A stretch of 32,000 nucleotides of DNA, from contig NZ_PQWO01000033.1 of assembly GCF_003231495.1 (NCBI RefSeq), forward strand, positions 1 to 32,000, written 5' to 3'. The number at the start of each line of letters is the position of its first letter. Position 1 is the stretch's first letter. Under the pieces are notes generated by a model. The model was not told the origin of the DNA. It did not search any database and worked only from the letters and a program-made list of their open reading frames with translations. This stretch comes from Acaryochloris thomasi RCC1774 (GTDB taxonomy: Bacteria; Cyanobacteriota; Cyanobacteriia; Thermosynechococcales; Thermosynechococcaceae). Below, one piece after another: positions 1,831 through 32,000 of this stretch. The translations under genes and the position numbers were made by a program.

Positions 1831-1834
1831 GTAA

Positions 1835-6003: not shown

Positions 6004-6016
6004 TGAAGCACACTAG

Positions 6017-8530: not shown

Positions 8531-8532
8531 AT

Positions 8533-9861: not shown

Positions 9862-9908
9862 ATTTTATATATTTCATCAAAGAATATATTAACTAATTTT
9901 GAAAAAGA

Positions 9909-9937
9909 AAGATATGTACTGAATAATGAATGTTCAA
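9909..9937 (-). promoter_or_regulatory. Candidate sigma-70-type promoter for the P450/TPS/CHAT gene string
   Basis: Minus strand reads TTGAAC (9937..9932), a 17-nt spacer, then TATCTT (9914..9909). It sits in the 81-nt AT-rich gap between the kinase stop and the P450 ATG (9861). Pattern match only. Confidence 0.25.
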
Positions 9938-9942
9938 TCTAG

Positions 9943-13013: not shown

Positions 13014-13131
13014 CCCTCCAGTCCTGCAACAGGATAAACGTCACAACATCCGTAAAACTGAATTCTAACCTTAAAACATACATTTAGAGTATGGCACTAT
13101 CGGCGAAAAGCATAGCCTTGGTCCCCAATAT

Positions 13132-13160
13132 TTGTGATGATCACATGCTCATGCTATAAA
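13132..13160 (+). promoter_or_regulatory. Candidate promoter (TTGTGA-17 nt-TATAAA) with an overlapping 13-bp palindrome TGTGATgATCACA (13133..13145)
   Basis: Read directly: -35 at 13132..13137, -10 at 13155..13160, about 24 nt upstream of the first ParB-like ORF start (GTG 13184). The palindrome overlaps the -35, an operator-like arrangement. Confidence 0.3.
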
Positions 13161-13183
13161 ACATACAAACTAACATTGCTTGG

Positions 13184-13813: not shown

Positions 13814-13838
13814 CCTTCCACTCATTGTTATTTAGAGA

Positions 13839-13880
13839 GGTGACGCATTGCTTCGTAGGAAGCAATGCGTCACCAATTTT
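13839..13880 (+). terminator. Rho-independent terminator candidate after ParB-like 1
   Basis: Perfect 16-bp stem GGTGACGCATTGCTTC (13839..13854) / GAAGCAATGCGTCACC (13859..13874). The loop is GTAG, followed by AATTTTC. It begins 26 nt after the stop codon. Confidence 0.55.
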
Positions 13881-13927
13881 CGATCTCGTGGGGAGCAAAT
13901 CGGTTCAGCTTTACATCAGGTGATTAA

Positions 13928-13973
13928 GCTATCTAGAAACGCTATCTAGAAACGTTTCTAGATAGCGTTTCTG
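13928..13973. repeat. 13-bp motif GCTATCTAGAAAC as two direct copies plus one inverted copy (26-bp perfect palindrome 13941..13966) plus a partial fourth copy; candidate parS-like or operator site
   Basis: Read directly. Direct copies at 13928..13940 and 13941..13953; inverted copy GTTTCTAGATAGC at 13954..13966; then GTTTCTG at 13967..13973. A TTGACT hexamer follows at 13981..13986. The array lies between the two ParB-like genes. Confidence 0.6.
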
Positions 13974-14072
13974 CGGAGTCTTGACTTAAGCCTCTGAAGC
14001 CATTGTGTTGAGTGCGTTTGTCACTTTGGGAAATAGCGTATTATCCGATAGTGGTCATACGTTTAAGGTCTC

Positions 14073-16192: not shown

Positions 16193-18235
16193 ATGAGGGC
16201 CTCAGCAGAGCCAAGTTACCCCCAGGAGCCTCGTCGTCGCAATCAGCGACAATCTTCCAAACGACAACGACCTCAGGATCCCCTTCCGAAGAGTGAGACA
16301 GGTCAACATCTGGCCCATCTGTTTCCGAACGGCTGGAAATGGATTTATGCCAGTGCACCTGACTCCCAAGCCTCCCCCCAGTGGGAGACCATCCATCAGT
16401 TTCCCCTGACACCAATTGAAATGGAGCAACTGCACCAAGATGCGGAGAGCTTGGTGGGCATTCGCCCCGGAAGTCAAACAAGATGGCTCGTCATCGACAT
16501 AGACCACGGTTCTGACTATCACCCCATTACCAACGAAAACTGGCTTCCTCGCATTCGACATGCCCTTGAGGGGGTTGGCATTGCCAGGATACTGACCTGT
16601 CAAAGTAGTTATAGTGGTGGTCTTCATCTCTACCTACCAATCCCTCAGCCTGTCAGCAGCTTTTGGTTCTCAATCTGTGTCAAGCTCCACCTTGAAGCGA
16701 TAGGTATCAAGCTGTATGGGGGCCAATGTGAGCTATACCCCAACCCCAAGAAATATGTGCCCAAAGGAAAGGGATATAGCCTCTTCGCTGGCATCCGTTT
16801 ACCTATGCAGCCCAACAGCGGCTTCTACCCCCTCGACTCGGACCTCAACCCACTTCCTTGGACCCTTGCCCAGTGGCTCGAAGCCTTTGAGCAAGCAGCA
16901 TCCCTGCAGGACTTTACCCTGCTGCAGCACTCCATCATCCATGCCCAAGAAGCTTACCAACTGCGTCGTCATTACCATCCCAAATCTATCAGTAGCTGGC
17001 AGTCTCATATTGACCAAGAGAAGGGCCAAGGCTGGACTGGCCCCGGTCAATCGAACGCCAAGTTCAAAGCCCTTGCTTGCGAAGCCCGAGTATTCAAAGG
17101 GATGGATTCTGCAGAACAGATCGCAGAGTACATTGAGCAAACAGCTTCCCAGATGCCAGGTTTTAATGAATACAGCAACCACATCAAAGATCTCCGTCAG
17201 CGCAGCCGTGATGTGGCTCATTGGGCAATGAAGTTTTATTGGCCCAATGGTTCTGCTCCCCAACGAGAGACCCATTATCACAGTCGAGAAACCGCCCCTG
17301 CCGACTTTGGTTACCATCAATCTAAACGAGACGCTGCTCGACACCGCATCAACCAGGCTGTAGAGCAACTTCAGTCATCTTCAGGTCTACCGAAAGGCAT
17401 TTGCGATCGCGCCGAAGCCATTATCTTAATCGGCCATGTCAGCAAGCAGACGCTCTATCGGAACAAATCTCTTTGGCATCCAAATCATTTCAAATTACAA
17501 GCCCCCCCAGAAATCCCTCAACCTCAGCCACAGCAAGATATTACACAACCTCAGAGTAAAAATAGAGATGGAGGCGTTAGCCAACTGCTTAAATTCCTAT
17601 GGATAGGGACTCTTACACAACTCCTTATATATGTAGGGTTTGTACTACTAACTCAACAATTAGCTGCGACTGCCCTGGCCCTTAAAGGCCAAAGGGCAGA
17701 TCAAGCGGCGCTGGAAGTCACAACTCTTCCAAAAGAGGGGGGTCCGGGGGGAGATTTATCTAATGAGCCAAGCGTCAGCAATATCCAAAACTGGCAACAG
17801 CTACGGCTATCGCTCCCAGAAAGGTTTCAGAGGAAGCTTCAGCAGTCTGCCAGAGAGAGTTCTGAGCCAAAAGTTATCCAACTTCCATTGGAGTTTCGCA
17901 CCTCTGATGGTCCAGAGAATTTTCCAGTATTAAAACAAAAGGAGGGGGTACTTCACTCCGACTCACTGCTATCTAGGCATCATGTATCCGATTCTTGCCT
18001 TGACCCCCATCTCGGTAGGACCCTCTCCCTGTTGAGTGATGATGAGGTATTTAGGCAATGGTTCGATCTTGCAATGCAGTTTCAGATTGTCTCTGATTCG
18101 GAGTGGCATGAGGGAGAGTACTGGGTTGAAACCTTTGAGGGCTGGCGTCCATACGCTGAGATAGCGGCAACGTTTACCTTTGGTACTTTGAATACAATGA
18201 AGGATTCAGCCTCTAAGTCAAGTCAGTTTGATTGA
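16193..18235 (+). CDS. Putative plasmid replication protein with primase-polymerase (AEP)-like N-terminal motifs
   Basis: 680 aa, with GGAGG 7 nt upstream of the ATG. Motifs WLVIDIDHGSDYHP (DxD), SSYSGGLHLYLPI (sGG.H.y) and FAGIRLPMQP resemble prim-pol motifs I-III. A PQ-rich linker PPEIPQPQPQQDITQPQ and a hydrophobic stretch LLKFLWIGTLTQLLIYVGFVLL follow. The function is inferred, not certain. Confidence 0.4.
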   Translation: MRASAEPSYPQEPRRRNQRQSSKRQRPQDPLPKSETGQHLAHLFPNGWKWIYASAPDSQASPQWETIHQFPLTPIEMEQLHQDAESLVGIRPGSQTRWLVIDIDHGSDYHPITNENWLPRIRHALEGVGIARILTCQSSYSGGLHLYLPIPQPVSSFWFSICVKLHLEAIGIKLYGGQCELYPNPKKYVPKGKGYSLFAGIRLPMQPNSGFYPLDSDLNPLPWTLAQWLEAFEQAASLQDFTLLQHSIIHAQEAYQLRRHYHPKSISSWQSHIDQEKGQGWTGPGQSNAKFKALACEARVFKGMDSAEQIAEYIEQTASQMPGFNEYSNHIKDLRQRSRDVAHWAMKFYWPNGSAPQRETHYHSRETAPADFGYHQSKRDAARHRINQAVEQLQSSSGLPKGICDRAEAIILIGHVSKQTLYRNKSLWHPNHFKLQAPPEIPQPQPQQDITQPQSKNRDGGVSQLLKFLWIGTLTQLLIYVGFVLLTQQLAATALALKGQRADQAALEVTTLPKEGGPGGDLSNEPSVSNIQNWQQLRLSLPERFQRKLQQSARESSEPKVIQLPLEFRTSDGPENFPVLKQKEGVLHSDSLLSRHHVSDSCLDPHLGRTLSLLSDDEVFRQWFDLAMQFQIVSDSEWHEGEYWVETFEGWRPYAEIAATFTFGTLNTMKDSASKSSQFD

Positions 18236-19479: not shown

Positions 19480-19707
19480 ATGCCGAAACTCACTTCTCTT
19501 TTTCTTTTAACCTTCCCCCTGTCCTTTTGTACTGGCGTTGCAATAGCCGTAGCAGAAAACGCTGTTAATCAACCCTCTCAACGTCCTTCTGTCGAACAAA
19601 CGCCCGTCAAGTTGCAGTTATCTCAGACAGTAGATACCTGCGGCAAGTACTGCGAGAACTACCCACCGGGCCTCACGAAAGTCCGTATGCGCGACTGGCA
19701 ACCCTAA
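19480..19707 (+). CDS. Small secreted protein, unknown function
   Basis: 75 aa with GGAGG 7 nt upstream. Signal peptide MPKLTSLFLLTFPLSFCTGVAIAVAEN. It is the first gene of the long plus-strand array. Confidence 0.5.
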   Translation: MPKLTSLFLLTFPLSFCTGVAIAVAENAVNQPSQRPSVEQTPVKLQLSQTVDTCGKYCENYPPGLTKVRMRDWQP

Positions 19708-19717
19708 GCCGAGGTAA

Positions 19718-21418
19718 ATGATGTCTAACCAACTACTAATTGCCCCGAAAGTCTGTCCTAAGTGTGGATCTGACAAAACCTTTACCCGCGATGAGCGGAC
19801 CCTCTGTTTCATGTGTCAGACTCCTCTCGTCGAGCATGTACCTATGAAAATAGACCAAGAATCTCCTTCAGGGGTAATCGGTCGAGTTCGTTCGAGCGTT
19901 TTTTCAAACGAACGCCTGACCTTGATTTGGCAGAAGCTGGGCCGCAGAAAGGTGGTCGTCGGCAGTGGTCTCTTCGGAATTCTACTGCTTGGGTCTGGTT
20001 TGATTCTGGGTGCCCGCAATATCCCCTCCTCAGTAGCGCAGGGTTCTACTGAACTAGTCGCGTTAGGCGATACCTTCGTGGGCTATAGCACTCTCAGATC
20101 GCCAGAGTTTCAAGATTCACTTCAATCCCAAGGCATTGATGTCAAGTATGCTGATGACTTTGATCAAGCCTCTCGTGCCCAGAAGCTTTCCACTGGCGAA
20201 GCGGACCTGATTGTGACCACTCTTGATCAAGTCCTCCGTCATCGTCCTGAAGGCAAGATTGTGGCCATGTGGGACTATACCCAAGGCGCAGATGCGGTCG
20301 TTCTCAACACCAAGAAGTTTCCCTTGCTCAAGGACATGGATGCTTTGGCTGAGGAAGTGAAGCTAGCTGCTCAGTCGGGCCAGCAGTACTCCATCGTATA
20401 TGCCGCTGATACCCCTAGCGAATATCTAGCGCTCCTGCTCGCCAATAAATTCCCTAGCTTCCGCCTAGAGCAATTCAACTTGATCCCCGTGGCGGATGCC
20501 TCCGAAGCTTACAAGCTATTGCAAGACCCGAGCCAGAACATCGCGATCGCCGTATTGTGGGAGCCATTCGTCTCTCAGGCAGAGAAGAGCGGTCATAAGG
20601 TTGTCTTGAGCAGTGCTGATGTGCCGGAGGCGATTATTGATGTGCTGGTGGCTTCCAATTACTTTATTAAACGCCAACCTGAGGCGCTGAGTCAGGTCTT
20701 GGCTGCTTATTATGGCCGGATCGATGGTTCTCGTCTGGATGCGACCGCACTCAAGCAACAGATCGCCAAAGAGGCGAAGGTCTCTGGGCCAGAGGCTCTA
20801 ACGCTGCTCAACGGCATTCATTTCTTCAATGCCCGTGAAGCGAACGACTGGCTCAATGGCAATCAAATCGTTCCCAAGATTCGATACACCGGCAGCATCC
20901 TCAAAGCCTCTGGCCGACTCAATCAACTGCCAGAGCAACCCGAGCGTTTGTACACCGGCAAGTTTTTGGATCTTGCGATCGCCAACAGCACCGCGCTCGA
21001 CCAGCAGCTAAGTGGAATACGCCCGAATCCACCACAGGCCCCACCAAGCCCACCTAAGGCCCAGCCCGTCACTAATATTGGAAAGATCTCTGAGGATATT
21101 CGATTTGACCTCTCCAGTGTTCTGTTAGATCCAGAAGACAAAGCGACCTTAGATACCGTGATGGAGACGGCTAAGGGATTCGGTGGAAATACCGCAATTC
21201 AGATTACGGGGCATACCTCCGCAACTGGAAGCCCCGAGCGCAATGAAGTCTTGAGCAAAGGTCGTGTGGAATCTGTTGCTCAGTATCTTAAAGGCAAAAA
21301 GTTCTCAGGCGATTTGATTGTCAAGCGTGTCGGTAGCAGTTCGCCACTGCCGGGTGTTGATCCAGCCGATGCCCGCAACCAGCGCGTTGAAGTCGAAGTA
21401 GTAAGAACCGGAGGCTAG
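19718..21418 (+). CDS. Zinc-ribbon / TM / periplasmic substrate-binding-like / OmpA-C-like peptidoglycan-binding protein
   Basis: 566 aa. N-terminus CPKCGSD...CFMCQ. TM helix VVVGSGLFGILLLGSGLILGA. The central ~330 aa resemble NMT1/SsuA-type SBPs (GEADLIVTTLDQV.., ..AIAVLWEPFVSQAEK). The C-terminus has OmpA-family motifs: IRFDLSSVLLDPEDKATLD..IQITGHTSATGSPERNEVLSKGRVESVAQYL..NQRVEVEVV. Confidence 0.8.
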   Translation: MMSNQLLIAPKVCPKCGSDKTFTRDERTLCFMCQTPLVEHVPMKIDQESPSGVIGRVRSSVFSNERLTLIWQKLGRRKVVVGSGLFGILLLGSGLILGARNIPSSVAQGSTELVALGDTFVGYSTLRSPEFQDSLQSQGIDVKYADDFDQASRAQKLSTGEADLIVTTLDQVLRHRPEGKIVAMWDYTQGADAVVLNTKKFPLLKDMDALAEEVKLAAQSGQQYSIVYAADTPSEYLALLLANKFPSFRLEQFNLIPVADASEAYKLLQDPSQNIAIAVLWEPFVSQAEKSGHKVVLSSADVPEAIIDVLVASNYFIKRQPEALSQVLAAYYGRIDGSRLDATALKQQIAKEAKVSGPEALTLLNGIHFFNAREANDWLNGNQIVPKIRYTGSILKASGRLNQLPEQPERLYTGKFLDLAIANSTALDQQLSGIRPNPPQAPPSPPKAQPVTNIGKISEDIRFDLSSVLLDPEDKATLDTVMETAKGFGGNTAIQITGHTSATGSPERNEVLSKGRVESVAQYLKGKKFSGDLIVKRVGSSSPLPGVDPADARNQRVEVEVVRTGG

Positions 21419-21420
21419 TT

Positions 21421-22170
21421 ATGCTTGCAGAATCTCCTCAAATAACGCAACCGACACCATCGGAATTTCTAGATTCGATTAATGCAGGATCTGCTCAGTT
21501 ACAGCAATGGCTGACGACATCGGGTGCCTCTGATATTTACTCCGATTTGACTGAGTACGTTGATACTCAATATCAGGAGCTAGTCCATGTCTGTGGCGAT
21601 GACTTGATCACTCGCCATCAAGCAGCCTGTTGGCTTGAAACTCGGACGGAGCAAATCCGGCAAAAATCAATCGAGCTGGCGAATGAGCAAGATATTCGTG
21701 TGGACTTCTCTAGCGTCCGTGATTCCCCAACGTCAATGGTGTTTTGGAATGCGGGATCGATGTATAGCGGTCTTACAGGGAGTTTAAGGCAGCAACTCGG
21801 AACGTTGAGCGTTGCGGATATAACCCTTTGGTTGAATGCGCTGGGGAAATATATCGATACACTTGCGGTTTCAAATGAGCATCGGATCGAAGTGCTAGAG
21901 CAAGAGTCTAAGGAAGAGCTGGGTTCATGTACAGCAATACTTAAGAGCTTTCCAGGGCGGTTTTCTTCAAAAGAGTGTGAAGCGTTGGTAAAGCTGATTG
22001 AGAGTTCCTTCCAGAAACGCATGAAAATCGTCGTTCTGGGGTTTGCCAGCAAAATCTACCTTGACCTGCTGGCTAGATCTTACGACTTTTTTCTTCATCA
22101 GCCAGAAGGCGATCCATTAGTTCAAGAGGCATTGCTTGCCGTCGAAAATTGGGAGGTATCGGATGCATGA
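21421..22170 (+). CDS. Hypothetical cytoplasmic protein (no motif recognised)
   Basis: 249-aa ORF starting 2 nt after the upstream stop. It is largely helical and acidic by eye. The next gene overlaps its stop (ATGCATGA). Confidence 0.55.
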   Translation: MLAESPQITQPTPSEFLDSINAGSAQLQQWLTTSGASDIYSDLTEYVDTQYQELVHVCGDDLITRHQAACWLETRTEQIRQKSIELANEQDIRVDFSSVRDSPTSMVFWNAGSMYSGLTGSLRQQLGTLSVADITLWLNALGKYIDTLAVSNEHRIEVLEQESKEELGSCTAILKSFPGRFSSKECEALVKLIESSFQKRMKIVVLGFASKIYLDLLARSYDFFLHQPEGDPLVQEALLAVENWEVSDA

Positions 22171-22471
22171 GTCAGGCTATCGAGTCGCTTCTGTACTGGA
22201 GCACGAAATTAATCGCCGTTGCGAAGAAGCTAGGCTGCAGATTTTGTTAAGAAGGCTAAAGTTTTCGAGCAGCTTGTTTGTAGTTATAGGTGGTATTTTA
22301 CTTGCTTCAAATATAGCGTCTAGTAAGTACGGTTTTTTGCTATTAGCAATGAGTTCATCACAGCTCGTTTTAGCTAGCTTTTTGGATAAAGATAAGAGCT
22401 TGCTAGTCTACTCCCTATCTCTATTTCTATGTGTTGATTGCCTCGGAGTGTATCGATGGATACTCAACTAG
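22163..22471 (+). CDS. Small integral membrane protein (about 3 TM)
   Basis: The ATG at 22163 overlaps the upstream TGA. Hydrophobic segments: LFVVIGGILLASNIA, GFLLLAMSSSQLVLASFL, LLVYSLSLFLCVDCLGVY. The ORF is open from a TTG at 22136. Confidence 0.5.
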   Translation: MHESGYRVASVLEHEINRRCEEARLQILLRRLKFSSSLFVVIGGILLASNIASSKYGFLLLAMSSSQLVLASFLDKDKSLLVYSLSLFLCVDCLGVYRWILN

Positions 22472-22998
22472 CAAATCTTACATTACGGGAAGCCTATCGC
22501 CTGCAGGATAGCGAGAGCAAGCCATACGATATACCCTGGATTGTTTGGCTGCTGGAGAATCCCGATAGTCCGCTGCCGTTTCCAGGCCAGATTTACCTGA
22601 GGGAGCATGACTATCTTCATATTATCTTTGGATTAGATCGATCTTCAGAAAGTGAAGCTTTCCTGGTGGGATTTGCGATGGGATTAGATTTAAATACTCG
22701 TAACATTCACCTACTAATATTAATATTAACTTCATTCTTTTTATATCCCAAATCCTATAAGTTCAGTATGATGGATATAAGGAATCTAAACCGAGGTTTT
22801 CTAGTTGGAAGAATGCCTAAATTTGAATCCTTGAGAGTATTGAACTTCGAGCTATATCTAGACCAAAAAGTATCCGATATCAGAAACGCTTTTGGTCTTC
22901 AACTACCAGAACCTCGGTCCTTTATTAGTCAGACTTTGAATACTATGTCTAACCGTCTACGGTCACCGTTTGTATTTGCGCATCTGAAGCCGCCGTAG
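22456..22998 (+). CDS. Coq4-family-like protein (HDxxH-x11-E metal-binding motif)
   Basis: EHDYLHIIFGLDRSSESEAFLVGF matches the Coq4 signature HDxxH(x11)E. It is collinear with HDLWHVLTGYDTDPLGEVALQAF as I recall it. The ATG at 22456 overlaps the upstream gene by 16 nt. Confidence 0.5.
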   Translation: MDTQLANLTLREAYRLQDSESKPYDIPWIVWLLENPDSPLPFPGQIYLREHDYLHIIFGLDRSSESEAFLVGFAMGLDLNTRNIHLLILILTSFFLYPKSYKFSMMDIRNLNRGFLVGRMPKFESLRVLNFELYLDQKVSDIRNAFGLQLPEPRSFISQTLNTMSNRLRSPFVFAHLKPP

Positions 22999-23030: not shown

Positions 23031-23074
23031 CCCCACTACCGAACGAACTTTGACGGGCTTGAGCGGTAGTGGGG
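23031..23074 (+). other. Stem-loop: 11-bp perfect arms CCCCACTACCG / CGGTAGTGGGG with a 22-nt loop
   Basis: Read directly. It begins 33 nt after the Coq4-like stop and lies upstream of the first pilin-like gene. No U-tract follows, so it is not a canonical terminator. Confidence 0.3.
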
Positions 23075-23115: not shown

Positions 23116-23391
23116 ATGATACCTGCACAACATACGACAGGCATTGCCTGTTGCGGTAAGCGTTGCTCTTGGCTAGCCGTCTCTATCGGCCTTGTCTTCT
23201 TTCTGGCTGCCCTATCGAGTGCTAAACCTGCCCAAGCTTCATTTACGAATGGAGCAGAATCCTTTTTTTCTGAGGCTTTTCCAGAGGCCAAGGGTTTTTT
23301 CCCCTTCGCCGCGAAAGCCTTTGTGGTTTTGAGCCTGACTTCTATCGCGCTTAGCTCCAGCGGTTCAGATTCAACGAACGAAAACTCCTAA
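23116..23391 (+). CDS. Small exported hydrophobic protein, pilin-like (VirB2/TrbC-like architecture), paralog 1
   Basis: 91 aa with GGAG 8 nt upstream. Signal-like WLAVSIGLVFFLAALSSAKPAQA, then SFTNGAESFFSEAFPE, then the hydrophobic AFVVLSLTSIAL. It shares the mature N-terminal motif with the 24364 ORF. Confidence 0.45.
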   Translation: MIPAQHTTGIACCGKRCSWLAVSIGLVFFLAALSSAKPAQASFTNGAESFFSEAFPEAKGFFPFAAKAFVVLSLTSIALSSSGSDSTNENS

Positions 23392-23431
23392 GTTTGGCTG
23401 CAGCGCACTTTAGGCGCTCAGTCACGCATCT

Positions 23432-24307
23432 GTGCAGGATTTGCCCATGATTAAATCCCCACCCTTAGAATTAATTCGTGCTGCCCAGGCCAACAATCGG
23501 CGGGCGAGAGACAGAGTATTCTCTGCCTCCTATGAGTTCGTGTCGATGATCGCTCGCCAGTGGTCATTGAGATATGCATATCTCGAATTTGATGATTGCC
23601 TTCAGGCTGGTTTTGAGGGGCTACTGGTCGCCATTGAGCGGTTTGACTTTTCAAAAGGCGTCCAGTTCCATACCTATGCCAAGTGGCCGGTCTCCAACAG
23701 CATTCAAGAGCTGGAAAGGGCTGAAGCAAAACAGCAGCGAACTTACGAAAAAGCTGTCACTGCCTATAGCCAAGATTCAGCCGAACCGCTGAACTGGATA
23801 GCTGAAGCTCAAAATAACCGCAGCCTTCGCAAGCGTATCTACAAAGCGCTTAAATCTTTCTCCCGCTTAGTCCGCAAATGGCTGGTCCTGCGACTGCTGG
23901 GATACTCCTACGTCAAGATTGCTGAACGCTTCAACGTGACGCGGCATAAAGTCACTGCAATCATCAAGTCTGCGATGGGCGTCTTTCGGCAGCGGATGTT
24001 TCCAGAAGCCTATCGCTTCAAGCAGACTTTAGGTGCTCACCTGAAGCGCGGCCAGGTCAAACGCCACAAACCCGTCCCACCGCCCGCGACACCCACGCCA
24101 ATACGTGCGGTCTTCAGAAGACTGCGAACGCTTGCAAGTGGCTTGCTGGGGTCAGTGCAACAGTCGGCGCAAAAGTTTGTCCAACAGGTCGTACCTGGAG
24201 CGCGCGTCAATTCGCTGTGGTCTCTAGGAGAAGACGACGATAGCTCGTCGAGCAATCCCGCTGATGTGACATCCGTGCCAGGGTCCGGCATTCCGCCGCC
24301 TGGATAG
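23432..24307 (+). CDS. Sigma-70 family RNA polymerase sigma factor with a ~90-aa Pro/Ser-rich C-terminal extension
   Basis: Region 2: DDCLQAGFEGLLVAIERFDFSKGVQFHTYAKWPVSNSIQ. Region 4 HTH: LVLRLLGYSYVKIAERFNVTRHKVTAIIKSAMGVFRQ. Start is GTG 23432 or ATG 23447. Confidence 0.75.
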   Translation: MQDLPMIKSPPLELIRAAQANNRRARDRVFSASYEFVSMIARQWSLRYAYLEFDDCLQAGFEGLLVAIERFDFSKGVQFHTYAKWPVSNSIQELERAEAKQQRTYEKAVTAYSQDSAEPLNWIAEAQNNRSLRKRIYKALKSFSRLVRKWLVLRLLGYSYVKIAERFNVTRHKVTAIIKSAMGVFRQRMFPEAYRFKQTLGAHLKRGQVKRHKPVPPPATPTPIRAVFRRLRTLASGLLGSVQQSAQKFVQQVVPGARVNSLWSLGEDDDSSSSNPADVTSVPGSGIPPPG

Positions 24308-24363
24308 ATTGCCCATCCTCGTGTCCAAAATCAACCCAATCTTCATCACTAAAGGAAAAACTA

Positions 24364-24828
24364 ATGCTTGGTCCTCTCTACCTTCCGCATGTCATCTTTT
24401 CTGCAGTCGTCGTGTTGCTGTGGGCCTACCCGCGTATTGCGCGTCGGTTCTCCAAATACATCGCTCGGTTGACCGCCGCGATCTTTGGTTTTGTTGGTTT
24501 TACTGCCCTCACCACTGCTCCAGTCCGAGCGCAGTTTCTCAATGGTGGCCGGGAGTTTTTTACGACCTCCTTTCCTGATACGACTGAGTTAACCAACCTG
24601 TTATTTAATGTTTTGCTTGGTGTTTATGTAATCTATATCGCGGTTTCAGCCTTTCGTGTGTTCGGCGCGATGCGGTCTGAAGAGGGTGGCGAGTGGCTAG
24701 AGATTGCTAAGACGCCGCTCAAAATCATCCTCTCAATCACGGTCATTGATTCAATGATTGCCCTAGTTGTGAGCGGTGGTGGCGGTGGTGGTGGTGAATT
24801 TGCGGCTCTATTTCTGGGCCTTGGATAG
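24364..24828 (+). CDS. Exported hydrophobic protein, pilin-like (VirB2/TrbC-like), paralog 2
   Basis: 154 aa. Signal-like AAIFGFVGFTALTTAPVRAQ, then FLNGGREFFTTSFPD, then two hydrophobic helices (LLFNVLLGVYVIYIAVSAF, LKIILSITVIDSMIALVV) and a poly-Gly tail. Its stop overlaps the next start (TAGTG). Confidence 0.5.
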   Translation: MLGPLYLPHVIFSAVVVLLWAYPRIARRFSKYIARLTAAIFGFVGFTALTTAPVRAQFLNGGREFFTTSFPDTTELTNLLFNVLLGVYVIYIAVSAFRVFGAMRSEEGGEWLEIAKTPLKIILSITVIDSMIALVVSGGGGGGGEFAALFLGLG

Positions 24829-25193
24829 TGAGCAAATATCCCCTCACGGTCAAGAAAGCCCTAGGGAAGAAAGCTTCTATGGGGCCAATCCCGGCAGATA
24901 TGGTGATTCCAACGATTGTGGGTGCCATCCTCTCACTGATGGCGAGAGGGGCTTTCAATCTAGATTGGCCGGTCGCCATGATCTTGTGCGCCCTGACCTT
25001 CGTGTTCTACTTCTTTCTAGTCGGTCAAAAGAGCTGGAAGTTCTACAGCTTGTTTATCGATGTCCCCACCCTGATTCGGATTGCCCCACGATACTTGAGT
25101 CCAAGTAGCTATGAAAGAAACAAAAAAAAGGCGGAAACTGGCCGGACTAAAGGGAAGGGTTCTCGGCGCAGAAGACAGCCTAAACGTCGCTGA
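24828..25193 (+). CDS. VirB3/TrbD-like small inner-membrane protein
   Basis: 121 aa with a GTG start overlapping the upstream TAG. Two TM helices: MVIPTIVGAILSLMA, VAMILCALTFVFYFFLV. Its position immediately upstream of the VirB4-like ATPase fits. The basic tail is encoded in the 83-nt overlap. Confidence 0.45.
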   Translation: MSKYPLTVKKALGKKASMGPIPADMVIPTIVGAILSLMARGAFNLDWPVAMILCALTFVFYFFLVGQKSWKFYSLFIDVPTLIRIAPRYLSPSSYERNKKKAETGRTKGKGSRRRRQPKRR

Positions 25194-27918
25194 GATCGTC
25201 GATTACCGGATGGGTGATCACGAGTTTGGTGCCTATCAGCTCCATAAGCGTGACAACGTAAAGAACACAGACACCTATCAACTGGTGTTTGGCTTTGAAG
25301 TGAGCGGTATTCATAGCTTCGCTTCCCCCGAATCGCTAGAGAAAGATATCAATGACCTCTGCGACGGCCTCAAAGCTGCCCCTCAGGGCGAGAGCCTAAC
25401 CCTGAGGCTGACCACAGAGTCAAATTGCGATCGCCGCAGGAATCAGCTAAAGAAACTGATTGCTGCGGCCTCGTCACCCGAGCTGCAGTATCTGCTGCAG
25501 GCTGAGCTGAACAGGCTGCAGCAGATCTCTGATAAGGGCGTTCGTCAACCCAAAACCCTGAGAGCCTACTGCACCTACAGCCCTTTCCAAGTCGCGGCTC
25601 AGCAAGACTGGTACTCCAAACTGTCCGTTCAACTGATGGGGATTTGGGATAAATGCACCGATCAGGTCCAGCTCAAAGCTCAACAAGCTTTTGAAGAACT
25701 CTACGCAGACGGCTATGCCAATGGGTTCATGGACTGGTTGATTTATTTTGAGAAGCAACTAGAGCTAGCCGTGACGCCGTTGAGCGCTGATGATCTTTGG
25801 GAGGATCTATGGAGCCGGTTCAACCAATCTGAAGCGCCAGCTCTGCCCCAGCGCATCATCTTCACTCCAGAAGGGATTGAAGAAAAGTATCACTCTCAGC
25901 AGCACTTCACCGGCCACCTGTTCAAAGAAGGTGTGCCCGACTTTGACCGCCGTTGGATTCGCAATAAAGGCCAGTTTACCGGCGTCCTAGTCTTTCAGGA
26001 GAAGCCCTACGGCTGGGCAACCGCTCGTCAGCAGCTCCGCTATCTCTGGGATGCGATGACGGCTGACGACTGGCATGACGCGGAAGTGATTACCGAGCTG
26101 CGACCGGCCAATCAGAAGCGGGCGCTGCAGGGTGCCACAGAGCTTGCCAAGGGTGCCAATCGAGAGGTTAATAATGCCGATGGCAAGAATAAAGTCAATC
26201 GCGTCGCTGATAAGAGTAAAGATGCCGCCATTGGTGCCACGGATGCCCTGCTAGATGGTGAAGCGGCCTATTACGTCTCCACTGTCTTTCTCGTGCATCG
26301 CAAAACGCCACGCCAGCTCGATATGGCCTGCGACAAGCTCTCGAAGATGTTTCGCGCCCCGGCAGAAGTGGAGCGAGAGGAGCAGGTGGCATGGCGGCTG
26401 TGGTTGGATGCCCTGCCGGTGGTGATGCGGACGATGCTTGCCCAGGTGCCCACCGATAGACGGAGCATGTACTTCAGCAGTGAGGTTCCGGGACTTGCGC
26501 CGCTGCTGCGGACTCGAACGCCAGCATATAGCGGTTATGAGTTTATCGCTGAATGCGGGACGCCGATTTATGTGGACCTGTATAAGCAGCATCAGCACAT
26601 GGGGTTCTTTGCAACCCAGCGCGGGGGTAAGTCTGTGACCATCGGCGGCATTCTGACCCACGGGTTAGCCCACGGTATTCCCACCGTTATCCTGGACTAC
26701 CCGAAAGGCAATGGTTCTAGCACTTACAAGTATTATGCTGCCTTCATGCCAGAGGTGGAGTACTTTGATATTGGCGAAGAGTCCAACAACATCTTTGAGT
26801 GTCCTGATTGGCGATTTCTTCCCAGAGAGAAGCAAAAGCAACGCTTTAGTAGCTTCCGCGACTTCCTAGAAGGTGCCCTGCTGCTGCTGATCAATAGCGG
26901 CAGTCAGGATAAAAATCTAACGATGAACCTGCGAACCATCTTTGGGATGGCGCTCAACGAGTTTTTCTCAGACCCTGGCATCCAGGCGCGTTATCAAAAG
27001 GCTTTAGATGGCGGTTTTGGTTCAGCAGACTGGGGAGAAATGCCAACGCTGCGGGACTTCAAGGCATTTTGCTCGAAGGCACGTCTACCTGAGATTAAGG
27101 GCAACACGGAGGACGTTGACAAGGCGCTGGGGCTGATCAACCAGCGGCTTGAATACTGGCTCAACAGCTCAGTGGGTAAAGCCATTAGTCAGCCATCGAG
27201 TTTCCGTACGGATGCGAAGATGATTGTCTTTGCCCTGCGGAATCTGGGGACAGAAGAGGATGCTGCTGTCCTGGCCCTGTCAGCCTATGCTGCTGCCCTA
27301 AGGCGATCGCTCGAACATGACAAGAGTATCTTCTTCATTGATGAAAGCCCGATTCTGTTTAAGTTTGAAGCCATTGCCCGGTTGATTGCGACTTTGACGG
27401 CCAACGGCGGTAAGTCAGGTATTCGGGTGCTTCTGTCGGCCCAGGATGTCGATAGCATTGGTGAGAGTCCTGTGGGGTCTCAGATCCTGCAGAACCTGAC
27501 GATAGTGATGATTGGGTTCATCAAAGCCAGTGCTGTTAACTCGTTCGTTAAATACCTGGGCTACCCGGAAGCGTTAATCCGAGGCAACACGAAATTTAAG
27601 CTCAATGCCAATGATCTCTATTCTCGTTGGCTGATAGTCGATGATACGGCCAAGACGAAGGTGCGCCACTATGACACGCCGGAACGGTTAGCCCTGCTTG
27701 CGAACAACCCTGATGAGGAGCGCAAGCGTGATGAAGTGTTTGCCGCTGTCCCTGATAAGTATCAAGCCTTAGAGCTGTTTACAGGGCTACTGGTGGAGTC
27801 CATCAAGACGGGGCAGAAGTTCTACGAGGATGAGGCAGAGGCCAAGCCTGAAGCCCTGCCCCAGGTCGAAGAGCGCCCGCTGTTGTTAGCTGGCAACTTT
27901 ACCGATGATGCGGCGTAG
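25111..27918 (+). CDS. VirB4/TrbE-family type IV secretion ATPase (divergent)
   Basis: 935 aa. Walker A: ATQRGGKSV (AxxxxGKS). Walker B: SIFFIDESPILF. Also RVLLSAQDVDSI (the tQ..D motif of VirB4-type ATPases). Size and flanking small membrane genes fit the VirB2-B3-B4 order. ATG 25111 is the only canonical start upstream of the conserved N-terminal region. Confidence 0.7.
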   Translation: MKETKKRRKLAGLKGRVLGAEDSLNVAEIVDYRMGDHEFGAYQLHKRDNVKNTDTYQLVFGFEVSGIHSFASPESLEKDINDLCDGLKAAPQGESLTLRLTTESNCDRRRNQLKKLIAAASSPELQYLLQAELNRLQQISDKGVRQPKTLRAYCTYSPFQVAAQQDWYSKLSVQLMGIWDKCTDQVQLKAQQAFEELYADGYANGFMDWLIYFEKQLELAVTPLSADDLWEDLWSRFNQSEAPALPQRIIFTPEGIEEKYHSQQHFTGHLFKEGVPDFDRRWIRNKGQFTGVLVFQEKPYGWATARQQLRYLWDAMTADDWHDAEVITELRPANQKRALQGATELAKGANREVNNADGKNKVNRVADKSKDAAIGATDALLDGEAAYYVSTVFLVHRKTPRQLDMACDKLSKMFRAPAEVEREEQVAWRLWLDALPVVMRTMLAQVPTDRRSMYFSSEVPGLAPLLRTRTPAYSGYEFIAECGTPIYVDLYKQHQHMGFFATQRGGKSVTIGGILTHGLAHGIPTVILDYPKGNGSSTYKYYAAFMPEVEYFDIGEESNNIFECPDWRFLPREKQKQRFSSFRDFLEGALLLLINSGSQDKNLTMNLRTIFGMALNEFFSDPGIQARYQKALDGGFGSADWGEMPTLRDFKAFCSKARLPEIKGNTEDVDKALGLINQRLEYWLNSSVGKAISQPSSFRTDAKMIVFALRNLGTEEDAAVLALSAYAAALRRSLEHDKSIFFIDESPILFKFEAIARLIATLTANGGKSGIRVLLSAQDVDSIGESPVGSQILQNLTIVMIGFIKASAVNSFVKYLGYPEALIRGNTKFKLNANDLYSRWLIVDDTAKTKVRHYDTPERLALLANNPDEERKRDEVFAAVPDKYQALELFTGLLVESIKTGQKFYEDEAEAKPEALPQVEERPLLLAGNFTDDAA

Positions 27919-27981
27919 GAACAGCTTTCGATGGCTTTTGCAATAGGTAAGTGGACGTCCACTTATTTTGGAGAACTCCAA

Positions 27982-28752
27982 ATGAAACGAATTAAGAAAC
28001 TCGCGCTCATTGGTGCGATCGCTATCCCTGTAACGCTGGGGGTGGGGCAAAATGCCAAGGCTCAAGACTTCTTTGGTTCTGTTATTAGCGGCTTTGGTGA
28101 GGAAGTTGGCGGCATTGGCGGCGGCATTTTTAGAGGTGCTTTTACTGCGGTCACTGGCTTTGAAACACCCCAGCTCTTTGCCCAAGATATGTTTTCTAGC
28201 ATCCTTGGCAAGGAGAAACTAGACCTCCCTATTGCCAGCAACGTTGAAGAGCATGTCGGTGAGCTGGGGAGTGTTGACCTTCAGAGTGCGGCTGAAGCGA
28301 GTCAAGATAGCCTCCAGGGGCTGATCGAAGACAACACTGGAATCATGTCCAATATGGCTGCTAAGGCTCAGGGCCAGTCCTTCCAACGTGCCGCTATTCA
28401 GGCGAGTGCTCAAAATACACTCTCTCAGGAGGCCCAGACTGCAGCAAGGTCTAGCATCGAGAGTACTGGTGAAACGAATGCGAAGCAGGCAGAAGCTCTC
28501 AGTGACGTGATGCAGTTTACGGTCACCCAAGACATTGCCAAGTATCAGGCGGTTCTCAACCAAGCCCAGAACAACATCTTGGGCGATATCAAGGCGGGGC
28601 AGATTACCTCAGCTCAGTCTGATGCTCAGACCAATCAACTGCTATCGAATATCGATGGTTCGCTGGCGGAGATTAAGAATCAGGGTTCAGATTCAAATGC
28701 AGGTGCTATTGCTAGCTTGAGTGCGAGTAAAGGTGCATTGAATCTTTTCTAG
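27982..28752 (+). CDS. Secreted Gly-rich then Gln/Ala/Ser-rich protein (VirB5-position candidate)
   Basis: GGAG 8 nt upstream of the ATG at 27982. Signal peptide MKRIKKLALIGAIAIPVTLGVGQNAKAQ. The remainder is helical and Q/A/S-rich. The ORF is open from 27931. Confidence 0.5.
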   Translation: MKRIKKLALIGAIAIPVTLGVGQNAKAQDFFGSVISGFGEEVGGIGGGIFRGAFTAVTGFETPQLFAQDMFSSILGKEKLDLPIASNVEEHVGELGSVDLQSAAEASQDSLQGLIEDNTGIMSNMAAKAQGQSFQRAAIQASAQNTLSQEAQTAARSSIESTGETNAKQAEALSDVMQFTVTQDIAKYQAVLNQAQNNILGDIKAGQITSAQSDAQTNQLLSNIDGSLAEIKNQGSDSNAGAIASLSASKGALNLF

Positions 28753-28780
28753 ATGAGTAATCGTTAAAGCCTCTGTGGAG

Positions 28781-28812
28781 TTGTTGTGCCTCTGTTTTCA
28801 GGGGCACAACAA
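28781..28812 (+). other. Stem-loop TTGTTGTGCCTC / GGGGCACAACAA (12 bp including one G-U pair), 8-nt loop
   Basis: Read directly. It begins 29 nt after the stop at 28752. No U-tract follows. Confidence 0.3.
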
Positions 28813-28820
28813 GATGAAAT

Positions 28821-29249
28821 ATGTATAAAAAAAAGGGATCAATCTTTAGTTCCCCATTAGGGAGATCTAGATCTTCTCAAGCATATAGGGAGAGAGCCAC
28901 CGATATGTTGCTTTCGGAGATGTCGCGAGTTTCGCCTGACTCTCCTGCTTATGAGAAGTTGCTCGAACAGTTAAAGCGACTTTCAAAGGATGAATCAAAT
29001 TCTGAGGACGAACTTCGCAGGCAAAGGCTAAATAAGAGACTTCAGGCAATCTCTCATATCAATCAAATGCCTGTATGGTTTCAAGTAATATTTATTCTCT
29101 CACTATTGTATTTGATCGTTCTGTTCATTGATGCTTCAGGTTTTTGGTTTGGCTACGATTTCCTCAATAACAATCCACCACCTGTTCAATCAAGCCTAAT
29201 GCGTACTCCTGATTATCGATATATCCAACAAGCCCCGAGTATTCCATAA
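28821..29249 (+). CDS. Bitopic membrane protein, unknown function
   Basis: 142 aa. The N-terminal half is charged and coiled (EKLLEQLKRLSKDESNSEDELRRQRLNKRLQ). Single TM: VWFQVIFILSLLYLIVLFI. Its stop overlaps the next start (TAATG). Confidence 0.5.
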   Translation: MYKKKGSIFSSPLGRSRSSQAYRERATDMLLSEMSRVSPDSPAYEKLLEQLKRLSKDESNSEDELRRQRLNKRLQAISHINQMPVWFQVIFILSLLYLIVLFIDASGFWFGYDFLNNNPPPVQSSLMRTPDYRYIQQAPSIP

Positions 29250-30463
29250 TGTTGAATCTTTTTCGCATACCAGAAGATCAACTATTCGATGTGAAGCCTT
29301 CTGAGTATATTGATCAGCCAAAAGCTGTGTGGCGTAACTATCACAATCGCAAGTTATTTATCAATCTACTTTTGCTGAGTCTGGTTGCATTGATCCTGAT
29401 GTTTCTGCCGCATCAAGCTGTGGCACAGGTTCCTGATAGTCCTATTGAGTTGCTCGTGAATTCGGGCATAGCAATCCAAGAAGCTATCTCCGATTCAGTT
29501 GAAGAGGCGTGGATGGAGCAACTGCCCCTGTTTATGCTGATTCTCAATCAGTTAGCAATAGGAATTGCGGTGATTTCTATTATTTTCCTTGGCCTTGAAT
29601 TAGTTCAGGAGCAAAGAGAGTGGGGGTATTTTACTTGGCAGCGCATAGTTATACCCTTGGTGATGATCGGCCTTGTTGGTAATGTCAGCTTTATGTCTGA
29701 TGTTGCGTTCGGACTGCGAAATGAACTCAACCAGCTCAGCGTGAATGCTTATACAACCTTAGGTGTCATAGATCTTATTGACGAGGCGCGGAATGCGGAT
29801 GCGTTGCCTAAGATTCTGTCAGACGTATGGGCAGAGTGTCGAGCCGCTGATCAAGCGTTGAGTGGGGCATGTATTGAGGATGCAATTAGCAATTCGAATG
29901 AGATCATTGATATAGAAAATCGATCATTCCCTGGTGCGGGTTGGGTAGATCATTACAGAAATATTTTGACTGAGATTGGTGATAACTTTACGGATGGAGA
30001 CTTCAATCCCTTAATCACAATTCCTGAATTATTGCGGGACGTTCAGTTTGCACTTATAAGTCCCGCAATAATTAATCTGTTCACAATCTTTGCTACGGGT
30101 GTTCAGAGTGCAGCTCAGATGCTGATTGAGCTTGTTCTTTTCCTGACAGCAATGCTTCTTCCTCTGGCTGTAGCTCGGTCTATATCTGAGGGCTTTGACC
30201 CGCTTTTAGGCTGGTTTATGAAGATGCTCGAATTTGCGATGGTGAAGTTCTTTTTGACGATCCTTATAGGGTTGGCGAGTATCATCTATCTTGATGCTGG
30301 TGGAGTAGGGGGTGCTCTGTGGTTTCCCATGCTGACTGGGATTCTAAGCCCTATCCTTGCCTTCTCTCTCGCTTCAGGAGGTGGATCGTCGATCGTTCAG
30401 TCTGTCCTTGGGGCTGTAGGTGCGGTTGCTGGCATTGCCTATAAGGGCTTCAAGCTCAAATAG
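29249..30463 (+). CDS. Polytopic membrane protein, VirB6/TrbL-like by architecture and position
   Basis: 404 aa with at least 6 hydrophobic helices (LFINLLLLSLVALILMF, LFMLILNQLAIGIAVISIIFLGL, IVIPLVMIGLVGNVSF, IINLFTIFATGVQSAAQMLIELVLFLTAMLLPLAV, FFLTILIGLASIIYL, LWFPMLTGILSPILAFSL). It has a central soluble loop and a Gly-rich tail. Confidence 0.45.
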   Translation: MLNLFRIPEDQLFDVKPSEYIDQPKAVWRNYHNRKLFINLLLLSLVALILMFLPHQAVAQVPDSPIELLVNSGIAIQEAISDSVEEAWMEQLPLFMLILNQLAIGIAVISIIFLGLELVQEQREWGYFTWQRIVIPLVMIGLVGNVSFMSDVAFGLRNELNQLSVNAYTTLGVIDLIDEARNADALPKILSDVWAECRAADQALSGACIEDAISNSNEIIDIENRSFPGAGWVDHYRNILTEIGDNFTDGDFNPLITIPELLRDVQFALISPAIINLFTIFATGVQSAAQMLIELVLFLTAMLLPLAVARSISEGFDPLLGWFMKMLEFAMVKFFLTILIGLASIIYLDAGGVGGALWFPMLTGILSPILAFSLASGGGSSIVQSVLGAVGAVAGIAYKGFKLK

Positions 30464-31662: not shown

Positions 31663-32000
31663 CTAATCTTCCGGCAAGAACTCACTGTTGAGCGTCTGCT
31701 CCGCTGTGTACGGGCATTCAGGTGGAAAAGTCTCTAGGGGAAGTCCAGTCTCGTCGGCTGCATCTTCAGCCGCGTCTTGGTAACAGAGGTCGAACTTCTC
31801 TATCAGGTGGTTTTTCAGCGATGGATAGTCCCGTACTAGTCTTCTGATCTGCTTTCTAGACTCACGGATAGATCCGCGCCAACTACCGGAACGTTTATCT
31901 GACTGATACTGCCATTTCAGTAGGTGCATGAGTAGCCGCGTGAGTTGACTTCGCAGTGCTTTCCTCTCGCTGTTGCCCAAGTCTTCGACCTCTTCAATCA
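31663..32000 (-). CDS. DUF29-family protein; the N-terminus lies beyond the window end
   Basis: EEVEDLGNSERKALRSQLTRLLMHLLKWQYQSDKRSGSWRGSIRESRKQIRRLVRDYPSLKNHL...ETFPPECPYTAEQTLNSEFLP matches the DUF29 pattern I recall (E.lg..e...l.s.l..Ll.HLLKWqyQp..rs.SW..tI.eqR..i). The frame stays open to position 32000. Confidence 0.8.
   Translation of the reverse strand, partial: IEEVEDLGNSERKALRSQLTRLLMHLLKWQYQSDKRSGSWRGSIRESRKQIRRLVRDYPSLKNHLIEKFDLCYQDAAEDAADETGLPLETFPPECPYTAEQTLNSEFLPED

Follow-up and report, generated by a model that had tools for sequence, protein, structure and literature searches.

Does the run of co-directional genes at positions 23116-30463 of a contig from the cyanobacterium Acaryochloris thomasi RCC1774, whose order recalls a type IV secretion system (T4SS), encode such a machine, and if so, of which class and for what use? 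We examined this in the window, a stretch of 32,000 nucleotides taken from a plasmid-like contig of 38,473 nt. A sequence-only reading of this DNA had proposed two pilin-like proteins, a VirB3-like protein, a VirB4-like ATPase, a secreted protein, a bitopic protein and a VirB6-like protein, and had left the choice between the cyanobacterial mating-pair formation class (MPF_C) and a secretion or DNA-uptake machine of new composition. Our comparisons indicate, with a probability of about 0.8, that the interval encodes one half of a conjugative MPF_C T4SS on a plasmid-like replicon, namely the promoter-proximal half with the inner-membrane and pilus-biogenesis functions.

Gene layout and comparison set

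Of the eight classes of T4SS, MPF_C has been studied least; it was reportedly defined computationally by Guglielmini et al. in 2011, from VirB4 phylogeny. Eight open reading frames (ORFs) occupy the plus strand of the interval, of 91, 291, 154, 121, 935, 273, 142 and 404 residues in this order. All are uninterrupted, and their products are 44-74% identical to their orthologues in the closest metagenomic relative (L001). Gene order, junctions and hydropathy were as previously described. The 154- and 121-residue ORFs meet in a TAGTG junction (24826-24830) and the 142- and 404-residue ORFs in a TAATG junction (29247-29251), while the 121-residue ORF overlaps the ATPase gene by 83 nt; in L002, whose ATPase is 51% identical, the corresponding overlap is 74 nt. 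By hydropathy, two hydrophobic segments are present in the 91-residue protein, four in the 154-residue protein (two in the leader and two in the mature part), about two in the 121-residue protein, one at the N terminus of the 273-residue protein, one at the centre of the 142-residue protein and at least six in the 404-residue protein. The seven proteins named in the sequence-only reading thus exist, and the interval holds an eighth gene, for a sigma factor, which had gone unnamed.

Protein families were assigned by iterative hidden Markov model (HMM) searches over the window and 14 other cyanobacterial loci, comprising the two closest metagenomic relatives, found on Logan metagenome contigs (L001/L023, ATPase 74% identical; L002/L003, 51%), and 12 plasmid loci. 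The resulting families were then compared in a local 9x9 hhalign matrix with seven-sequence alignments taken from seven reference operons of the MPF_T class, and reversed templates served as controls. Every alignable family gave its best score with the predicted MPF_T component. Cross-family comparisons all had E values of at least 0.0078, except for the expected similarity between the ATPase and the type IV coupling protein (T4CP), and the reversed-template controls were all at or above 0.1. The seven-sequence alignments were needed; with single R388 proteins as references, only VirB4 gave a significant match.

Assignment of the ATPase to VirB4

The ATPase motifs recognized earlier from sequence alone (AxxxxGKS, hhhhDE and SAQD) are indeed present, as ATQRGGKS (residues 501-508), IFFIDE (740-745) and SAQD (776-779). 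No variation at K507, E745 or Q778 occurs among 62 family members, and the window protein retains these residues together with D744. It matches C1752_10581 of A. thomasi at 100% identity. The VirB4 of pCC7120alpha, which is alr7206 (PMC8600333), is 38.3% identical to the protein over 870 residues, and that of pCC7120beta 39.8% identical, with 91% of the ATPase length covered. A tblastn search found relatives on 134-136 PLSDB plasmids, typically at about 40% identity over more than 90% of the length; among the plasmid matches listed, every host and every named genus belongs to the cyanobacteria, with a range from Gloeobacter to Nostoc. An exhaustive HMMER search of 1.84 G proteins recovered 483 cluster representatives. 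We had considered an ultra-rare family on the basis of a word-indexed search that returned just four proteins, but this was a sensitivity artefact in view of the 483 HMMER representatives and the 136 tblastn records.

The window ATPase itself has no Pfam match, and its NCBIfam scores (TraC, 9e-4; VirB4_CagE, 0.026) lie far under the curated cut-offs. Across the family, the F-type TraC model matched 40 of 49 members (best 3.7e-18) and VirB4_CagE 38 of 49, that is, about 80%. In Pfam, family members match P-loop domains of a generic kind, DUF87 and FtsK_SpoIIIE among them. At the profile level, the ATPase family matched MPF_T VirB4 with a probability of 99% (E 4.5e-16) over 467 columns (family columns 373-904, reference columns 306-802), and T4CP with 96% over 276 columns. 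Against R388 alone, the match to TrwK (92.8%) spanned 433 columns starting at TrwK residue 255, whereas that to the coupling protein TrwB spanned 47 columns only. The VirB4 matches also extend over part of the N-terminal domain. When the family profile was searched against the PDB, the best matches were FtsK (9.5e-7) and TrwB (1.6e-5), and the matches to FtsK, HerA and TrwB covered about 45 residues around the Walker A motif. In a neighbour-joining tree (distance-based and without bootstrap, sampling cyanobacterial and MPF_T VirB4s only), the window protein, L001 and L002 formed a clade of their own, nested among the cyanobacterial VirB4s that include alr7206 and separated by a long branch from the seven MPF_T VirB4s. 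An AlphaFold2 model of the ATPase from a four-sequence alignment was unusable (pLDDT 40). Because the VirB4 matches are long and the tree nests the ATPase among cyanobacterial VirB4s, its clustering does not follow FtsK or HerA. Judged from these sequence comparisons, the 935-residue protein is the VirB4 of an MPF_C system, VirB4-like rather than FtsK/HerA-like, as had been proposed.

Families encoded around the ATPase gene

The pilin-like family (154-residue gene), the family of the 273-residue protein and that of the 404-residue protein each have positional orthologues in all 14 other cyanobacterial loci. Iterative HMM searches linked the 154-/91-residue, 121-, 273- and 404-residue families to genes of pCC7120alpha (L005) at 8098-8703, 9194-9502, 12347-13063 and 13128-14279, respectively. 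In profile searches against PDB sequences, the pilin-like, 273-residue and 404-residue families gave no T4SS match.

The assignment of the 404-residue protein as VirB6-like is well supported. Its family matched MPF_T VirB6 with a probability of 84% (E 7.4e-6) over 192 columns (reversed control, E 0.31); the match to TrwI alone was not significant. One member of a pooled scan matched Pfam TrbL (2.1e-5), and the Nostoc punctiforme orthologue is named "type IV secretion system protein" by the PGAP annotation pipeline.

The family of the 121-residue protein matched the N-terminal 106 or so residues of ATPases of 1018-1088 residues from Gloeocapsa (5e-27), Oscillatoria (6e-26), N. punctiforme (2e-13) and A. 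marina (1.6e-3). A VirB3/TraL homologue has been reported in MPF_C by HHsearch (PMC4027160). The match to the long ATPases supports a VirB3-like protein, and its fusion to VirB4 in relatives indicates that the two are partners. Single VirB3-VirB4 proteins of this size occur on several cyanobacterial plasmids (L010, L011, L012 and L013).

The 154-residue protein consists of a leader of about 56 residues with two hydrophobic segments, a PAxA|QF site, and two hydrophobic helices with a charged loop between them. Its family (135-203 residues) immediately precedes the VirB3-like gene in each of the 14 other loci, and the alignment conserves PAxA|QF and a RxxEDWQ loop joining the helices. The match to MPF_T VirB2 was weak (28%, E 6e-4, 81 columns), with the cleavage site and both helices in register; the reversed control gave E 0.62 and all other reference families E values of 0.05 or more. 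Pfam TrbC matched none of the 15 members in single scans, and no PDB sequence was matched either. We therefore regard the protein as a candidate VirB2 equivalent, a component for which no homologue was reported in MPF_C (PMC4027160). Of the two pilin-like genes announced earlier, one is thus a full propilin-like gene. The other, of 91 residues, converges in iterative HMM searches on the same 14-locus family, and retains the leader, an AQA|SF site and the first hydrophobic helix, without the loop and the second helix; it is a truncated paralogue, set apart by the sigma-factor gene.

The 273-residue protein (256 residues in the NCBI annotation) follows VirB4 directly in all 14 other loci. Its family gave a match to MPF_T VirB5 of 20% (E 1.1e-3, 102 columns; reversed control, E 0.95). 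AlphaFold2, given 96 sequences, predicted an all-alpha protein at low confidence (pLDDT 55). Position and profile make it a candidate VirB5, the match being weak but specific. Thus, among the VirB2-, VirB3-, VirB5- and VirB6-like neighbours expected from sequence alone, VirB6 stands well, VirB3 stands through fusion, and VirB2 and VirB5 as weak but specific matches; hhalign placed VirB6, VirB2 and VirB5 on the diagonal, while a Foldseek search of the VirB5-position model found nothing.

The guess that the 142-residue bitopic protein might be VirB8 did not hold. A homologue is present in L001 only (8e-37); L002 has a 51-residue ORF at this place, and the remaining loci are empty there. It is another gene, C1752_10587, outside the window, that represents the conserved family in the VirB8 position (about 231-277 residues). 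The 142-residue gene is a clade-specific small gene, sitting where genes of the VirB7/Eex type stand in the MPF_T operons of R388 and IncN. Together with the opposite-strand 168-residue gene and the tetratricopeptide repeat (TPR) gene that follow, it is confined, among the loci compared, to the clade of the window.

The gene of the sigma-70/extracytoplasmic function (ECF)-type sigma factor lies between the two pilin-like genes, the choice of its start codon being uncertain. In L001-L003 an orthologue immediately precedes the pilin-like gene, and A. marina pREB4 has a homologue upstream of its T4SS.

Continuation of the module beyond the window

The statement that VirB9, VirB10, a coupling protein and a relaxase are missing from the window proved correct in all reading frames. 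The VirB8-position family search nevertheless led to C1752_10587, a 266-residue protein on the same 38,473-nt contig, 69% identical to that of L001. Since it is four locus tags after the VirB6-like gene on this contig, it lies just past base 32000, after the opposite-strand DUF29 gene. In L001 the orthologue of the TPR gene precedes the VirB8-like gene. The DUF29 gene appears to be an insertion into the operon, because L001 has only 52 nt at the same place. The VirB8-position family is named as VirB8-domain-containing by UniRef only. A second copy of the locus is present in the genome, with an ATPase paralogue (C1752_14778, 84% identical) near a VirB8-like gene (C1752_14787) on a contig of 16,218 nt.

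In L023 the order continues with VirB8-, VirB10- and VirB9-like genes, a 587-residue M23 peptidase, proteins of 204, 374 and 465 residues, and a 563-residue T4CP (TraG-D_C, 5.7e-18); L002 continues likewise. In these closest relatives the T4CP gene lies about 12 kb downstream of VirB4. The family of the 510-residue protein of L002 matched VirB9 (92%, E 6.9e-7), and that of its 458-residue protein matched VirB10 (10%, E 3e-3); the VirB10-position family of L001 and L002 matched PGAP-annotated cyanobacterial TrbI/VirB10 proteins with 98%. Since the VirB8-like gene stands just past base 32000 and the relatives carry the rest downstream, the absence of VirB8, VirB9, VirB10 and the coupling protein is an effect of the window edge, and the idea of a compact machine of new composition finds no support. 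The search of flanking DNA suggested earlier thus produced the T4CP in the closest relatives, but no relaxase in their available DNA.

Relation to known systems

In section 14 of PMC4027160, pCC7120alpha is the model of MPF_C. The model region (Guglielmini et al. 2011/2014) is alr7204-alr7213 of this plasmid of Nostoc sp. PCC 7120, and pCC7120beta carries a second system. The lineage of the window shares with both a core order of propilin-like, VirB3-like, VirB4, secreted (about 240-270 residues), VirB6-, VirB8-, VirB10- and VirB9-like proteins, a large cell-wall-associated protein and T4CP. With its VirB4 in the alr7206 clade, neighbours that are positional orthologues of the genes of both plasmids, and a family restricted to cyanobacteria, the window locus belongs to MPF_C, as the sequence-only reading had suspected. 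The term "highly divergent" used there is fair with respect to proteobacterial T4SSs; among MPF_C systems the locus represents a lineage of its own, yet an ordinary one. The sequence data support a divergent yet ordinary member of this computationally defined class, not a new kind of machine.

The window groups with L001 and L002 in a clade apart from other MPF_C systems. Identity stays at or under 41% on all PLSDB plasmids, and a word-indexed search turned up just four proteins that reach 51% or more. Relative to pCC7120alpha and pCC7120beta, the clade has in addition a sigma-factor gene at its head, the truncated pilin paralogue, the 142-residue gene, the opposite-strand 168-residue gene and a TPR gene before VirB8. 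The large protein that follows VirB9 on those plasmids has its homologue here in a protein with an M23 peptidase domain, and the clade is without the pair of "ATP-binding protein" and DUF192 genes that lies upstream on both plasmids. In the same genus, A. marina MBIC11017 pREB4 (L013) also has a sigma-70-family gene and an M23 peptidase accompanying its T4SS, with a homologous ParB-N protein upstream. Its VirB4 is however only about 25% identical and is fused to VirB3 (1030 residues), its sigma factor has 440-484 residues, and its M23 gene is upstream rather than downstream. The association of sigma factor and M23 peptidase therefore recurs in Acaryochloris (pREB4, L013 7906-11483, just upstream of the T4SS) at a VirB4 identity of about 25%.

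The MPF_T systems (Agrobacterium VirB, R388 Trw, pKM101 Tra) are colinear in the order B2-B3-B4-B5-(small gene)-B6-B8-(B10/B9). Profile comparison shows homology of VirB4, VirB6 and VirB9 and gives weak signals on the diagonal for VirB2, VirB5 and VirB10, and VirB3-VirB4 fusions occur in MPF_T as well as in cyanobacterial relatives. Unlike in MPF_T, VirB10 precedes VirB9, VirB3 and VirB8 have no detectable sequence similarity to their counterparts, and neither VirB11 nor a VirB1-type lytic transglycosylase was seen, an M23 peptidase being present in relatives. In addition, the propilin has a longer leader that contains two hydrophobic segments, and VirB4 exceeds its MPF_T counterpart by about 110 residues.

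Two observations concern the naming of these systems. MOB-suite labels MPF_C systems as "MPF_T" in the PLSDB typing of cyanobacterial plasmids, and PGAP/NCBI names nearly all components, VirB4 included, "hypothetical protein", "DUF87 domain-containing" or "T4SS DNA-binding domain-containing". There is thus a systematic annotation gap for the class.

Proposed mechanism and its alternatives

We propose the following course for a conjugative MPF_C system. The plasmid-encoded ECF-type sigma factor would direct transcription of the module, as its conserved position suggests. The 154-residue propilin would insert into the inner membrane, and cutting of its leader after PAxA would leave a two-helix pilin of about 98 residues, as its architecture and weak VirB2 match suggest. 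The VirB3-like protein would anchor and partner the VirB4 ATPase, as in the fusions of relatives. By analogy with MPF_T systems such as R388, VirB4 hexamers on the VirB6-like and VirB8-like proteins would extract pilin and power assembly, and the secreted helical protein of 273 residues may be a VirB5-type tip or adhesin. The envelope-spanning part would be encoded downstream, as in relatives, with VirB10-like and VirB9-like proteins and an M23 peptidase in place of the VirB1 lytic transglycosylase; the peptidase would remodel peptidoglycan, and a coupling protein, found in the closest relatives, would deliver relaxase-bound single-stranded DNA. VirB4 membership, synteny of the class, coupling of VirB3 to VirB4 by fusion, homology of VirB6, VirB9 and VirB10, and the T4CP in close relatives are all read from comparison. 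Leader cleavage, pilin extraction, a VirB5 tip, peptidoglycan remodelling and DNA delivery are what we infer by analogy.

Several observations weigh against this proposal. The 121-residue family showed no detectable similarity to MPF_T VirB3 (E 0.098 forward, 0.23 reversed). The VirB2 profile match is weak, as is the VirB5 match, in which the alignment spans the signal peptides; Foldseek of the VirB5-position model (pLDDT 55) against the PDB had a best E value of 1.3. The VirB8-position family had no Pfam match and no sequence match to MPF_T VirB8 (E 0.094). Homologues of the VirB8-, VirB9- and VirB10-like proteins, M23 peptidase, T4CP and relaxase were searched in all frames of the 32-kb window with no match, no oriT is visible there, and the DUF29 gene interrupts the module. 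Upstream of the sigma-factor and pilin genes of the window, L001 and L002, we found no convincing conserved promoter motif. MOB-suite types 70 of the 134-136 related plasmids as conjugative. To our knowledge, MPF_C genes have never been tested genetically or structurally. In the passage of PMC8600333 that cites Muro-Pastor 1994, the transfer of pCC7120alpha is the only one reported for a cyanobacterial plasmid. A candidate point of the opposite kind was also set aside: Pfam TrbC/VirB2 matched 2 of 56 pooled members, but we could not assign these hits to the pilin-like family, whose 15 members all lack the match in single scans, and they were left unused.

A functional MPF_C-type T4SS might instead serve protein or DNA export, DNA uptake or contact-dependent interaction, as do ComB, Ptl and effector translocators. 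Such a use would agree with the lack of a relaxase both in the window and in the roughly 19 kb available of the closest relative, with the 41-43 of 134-136 related plasmids typed as non-mobilizable, with the clade-specific extras (sigma factor, 142-residue protein, opposite-strand 168-residue protein and secreted TPR protein), and with other surface or secretion cargo on the replicon (a TpsA/TpsB pair and a CHAT protease). Relaxases may however lie outside the available DNA, and MOBV, MOBP or MOBF relaxases are linked to other family members. Taking into account also the VirD4-type coupling protein at the module end in the closest relatives and the plasmid partition and replication genes adjoining the module, we consider this alternative unlikely.

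Is the locus a decaying or incomplete MPF_C remnant that no longer assembles a machine? The truncated pilin paralogue, the DUF29 gene between the TPR and VirB8-like genes, the many related plasmids without a recognizable relaxase and the 84%-identical second copy of the locus, which could make one copy redundant, are what decay might leave. Yet all eight ORFs, including that of the 935-residue ATPase with its catalytic motifs, are intact, and the translationally coupled junctions are kept. Moreover, two metagenomic relatives, independent of each other, keep the same order at identities of 44-74% and 29-51%, which argues for purifying selection. A remnant is therefore quite unlikely. That the locus is no T4SS at all, with an FtsK/HerA-type ATPase beside unrelated membrane proteins, is hardly credible: the absent Pfam match, the sub-threshold NCBIfam scores, the generic domains of family members and the leading PDB matches to FtsK and TrwB would suit it, but those PDB matches are short where the VirB4 matches run over 433-467 columns, TraC/VirB4 models match most of the family, and the neighbours match VirB6, VirB9 and VirB10 with a T4CP following.

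Module boundary and replicon surroundings

The 13 co-directional genes counted earlier between 19480 and 30463 do exist. However, the conserved module does not include the first five of them (19480-22998). We considered them, the OmpA-domain protein included, as parts of the system and rejected this: homologues are found in none of 15 related loci, and a hairpin lies in between (Table 1). This hairpin is a possible terminator or boundary element, and a second one, after the VirB5-position gene, may act in attenuation or mRNA stabilization. Counts of consensus promoters and terminators are at chance level. The contigs of L001, L002 and L003 all start within 300 nt of the sigma-factor gene, on its upstream side, and the truncated pilin paralogue occupies this spot in the window. 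Because three metagenome contigs begin there, a recurrent assembly break at the module head, at a repeat or variable junction, is suggested. Neither an Rfam scan nor a tRNA scan of the window gave a match; the latter means that the window has no tRNA-linked integration site.

Upstream of the module, homologues of the 680-residue protein lie near the T4SS on pNPUN03 and on a Leptolyngbya plasmid, and the protein is likely a replication initiator (Rep candidate). With two ParB-like genes and this PrimPol-like protein upstream of the T4SS module, the window is a plasmid-like replicon; according to the genome paper (PMC6002478), plasmids may be among the 72 contigs. The 566-residue OmpA-domain protein is absent from all related loci. 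The kinase and NTPase genes look like a signalling or defence module. A trio similar to part of the cargo module lies on pCC7120alpha about 30 kb from its T4SS (L005 43763-49748), with a homologue of the 300-residue protein (30% identity), a CHAT protein and a protein with a filamentous-haemagglutinin N terminus. The GC content falls to 0.36-0.39 at 7000-10000, compared with about 0.45-0.53 elsewhere; this stretch contains the end of the TpsA gene and a cytochrome P450 gene (8533-9861, minus strand), and may be a recent acquisition.

Table 1. Positions of the module genes, hairpins and surrounding features in the window
Feature	Position	Strand	Basis or remark
Cargo module: 300-residue TPR-like protein (+) with the CHAT, TpsB and TpsA genes	928-8545		
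CHAT-domain protease with TPRs	1835-4384	-	
ShlB/FhaC-type TpsB transporter	4294-6003	-	
TPS-domain TpsA exoprotein	6017-8545	-	
Ser/Thr protein kinase with TPR repeats	9943-11619	-	4-nt overlap with the NTPase gene
NACHT/STAND NTPase	11616-13013	-	
ParB-N-like genes	13184-13813 and 14073-15173		Homologous to the ParB-N protein upstream of the pREB4 T4SS
680-residue protein, weak AEP/PrimPol match	16193-18235		LigD polymerase domain, E 0.036, residues 90-164
566-residue protein	19718-21418	Co-directional with T4SS	N-terminal zinc-ribbon-like CxxC pair, one transmembrane segment, periplasmic substrate-binding-like part (NMT1/SsuA-like), C-terminal OmpA peptidoglycan-binding domain
RNA hairpin, 11-bp outer stem, upstream edge of the T4SS module	23031-23074	+	dG -25.1 kcal/mol, z -3.9, 0/200 shuffles as stable
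Truncated propilin paralogue, C1752_10578, 91 residues	23116-23391	+	Iterative HMM, alignment; hypothetical in NCBI
Sigma-70/ECF-type RNA polymerase sigma factor, 291 residues	23432-24307	+	TIGR02937 1.5e-18; Pfam Sigma70_r2 2.8e-8, Sigma70_r4_2 0.0089
Propilin-like, candidate VirB2 equivalent, C1752_10580, 154 residues	24364-24828	+	Family position, hhalign
VirB3-like small protein with two transmembrane segments, 121 residues	24828-25193	+	Family equals N terminus of fused VirB4s
VirB4-family ATPase, cyanobacterial (MPF_C) clade, C1752_10581, 935 residues	25111-27918	+	Identity, hhalign, NCBIfam, neighbour-joining tree
Secreted protein in VirB5 position, predicted all-helical, 273 residues (longest form)	27931-28752	+	Signal peptide, synteny, weak hhalign; NCBI form of 256 residues, 27982-28752
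RNA hairpin, 14 bp, UUUU loop, between VirB5-position and 142-residue genes	28781-28812	+	dG -23.3 kcal/mol, z -5.2, 0/200 shuffles as stable
Clade-specific bitopic small protein, 142 residues	28821-29249	+	One central transmembrane segment at 82-111
VirB6/TrbL-like polytopic membrane protein, C1752_10583, 404 residues	29249-30463	+	hhalign, synteny
Membrane protein, 168 residues	30456-30962	-	Same place and strand in L001 (3.5e-34) and L002 (1.3e-17); no family match
Secreted TPR protein, 209 residues, N-terminal hydrophobic segment	30990-31619	+	Pfam TPR_1 9.8e-8; L001 orthologue 6e-51
DUF29 gene	31663-31980	-	Pfam 5.5e-37; between the TPR and VirB8-like genes

Meaning for cyanobacterial conjugation

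The locus adds a distinct marine, Acaryochloris-type lineage to MPF_C, with a sigma factor and an M23 peptidase as lineage-specific additions. It also gives a component map of the class, in which VirB4, VirB6, VirB9 and VirB10 are supported, VirB3 is placed through fusion, and candidate genes are available for VirB2 and VirB5. Since NCBI names every gene of the module "hypothetical" and MOB-suite mislabels the class as MPF_T, such a map is useful for annotation, and it may also help in designing the first knock-outs.

We know of no description of a plasmid-encoded ECF-type sigma switch for T4SS operons. The family of 135-203 residues upstream and the secreted helical family after VirB4 may correspond to the VirB2 and VirB5 that were not found for MPF_C in the 2014 survey. 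We put this forward tentatively, with more doubt than confidence, jointly with a T-pilus-like filament (long two-segment leader, PAxA|QF) and a sigma switch of its own in the Acaryochloris-type lineage. If the VirB2 and VirB5 candidates are true, cyanobacterial conjugation would use a T-pilus-like filament made from a propilin whose leader, in two segments, is unusually long.

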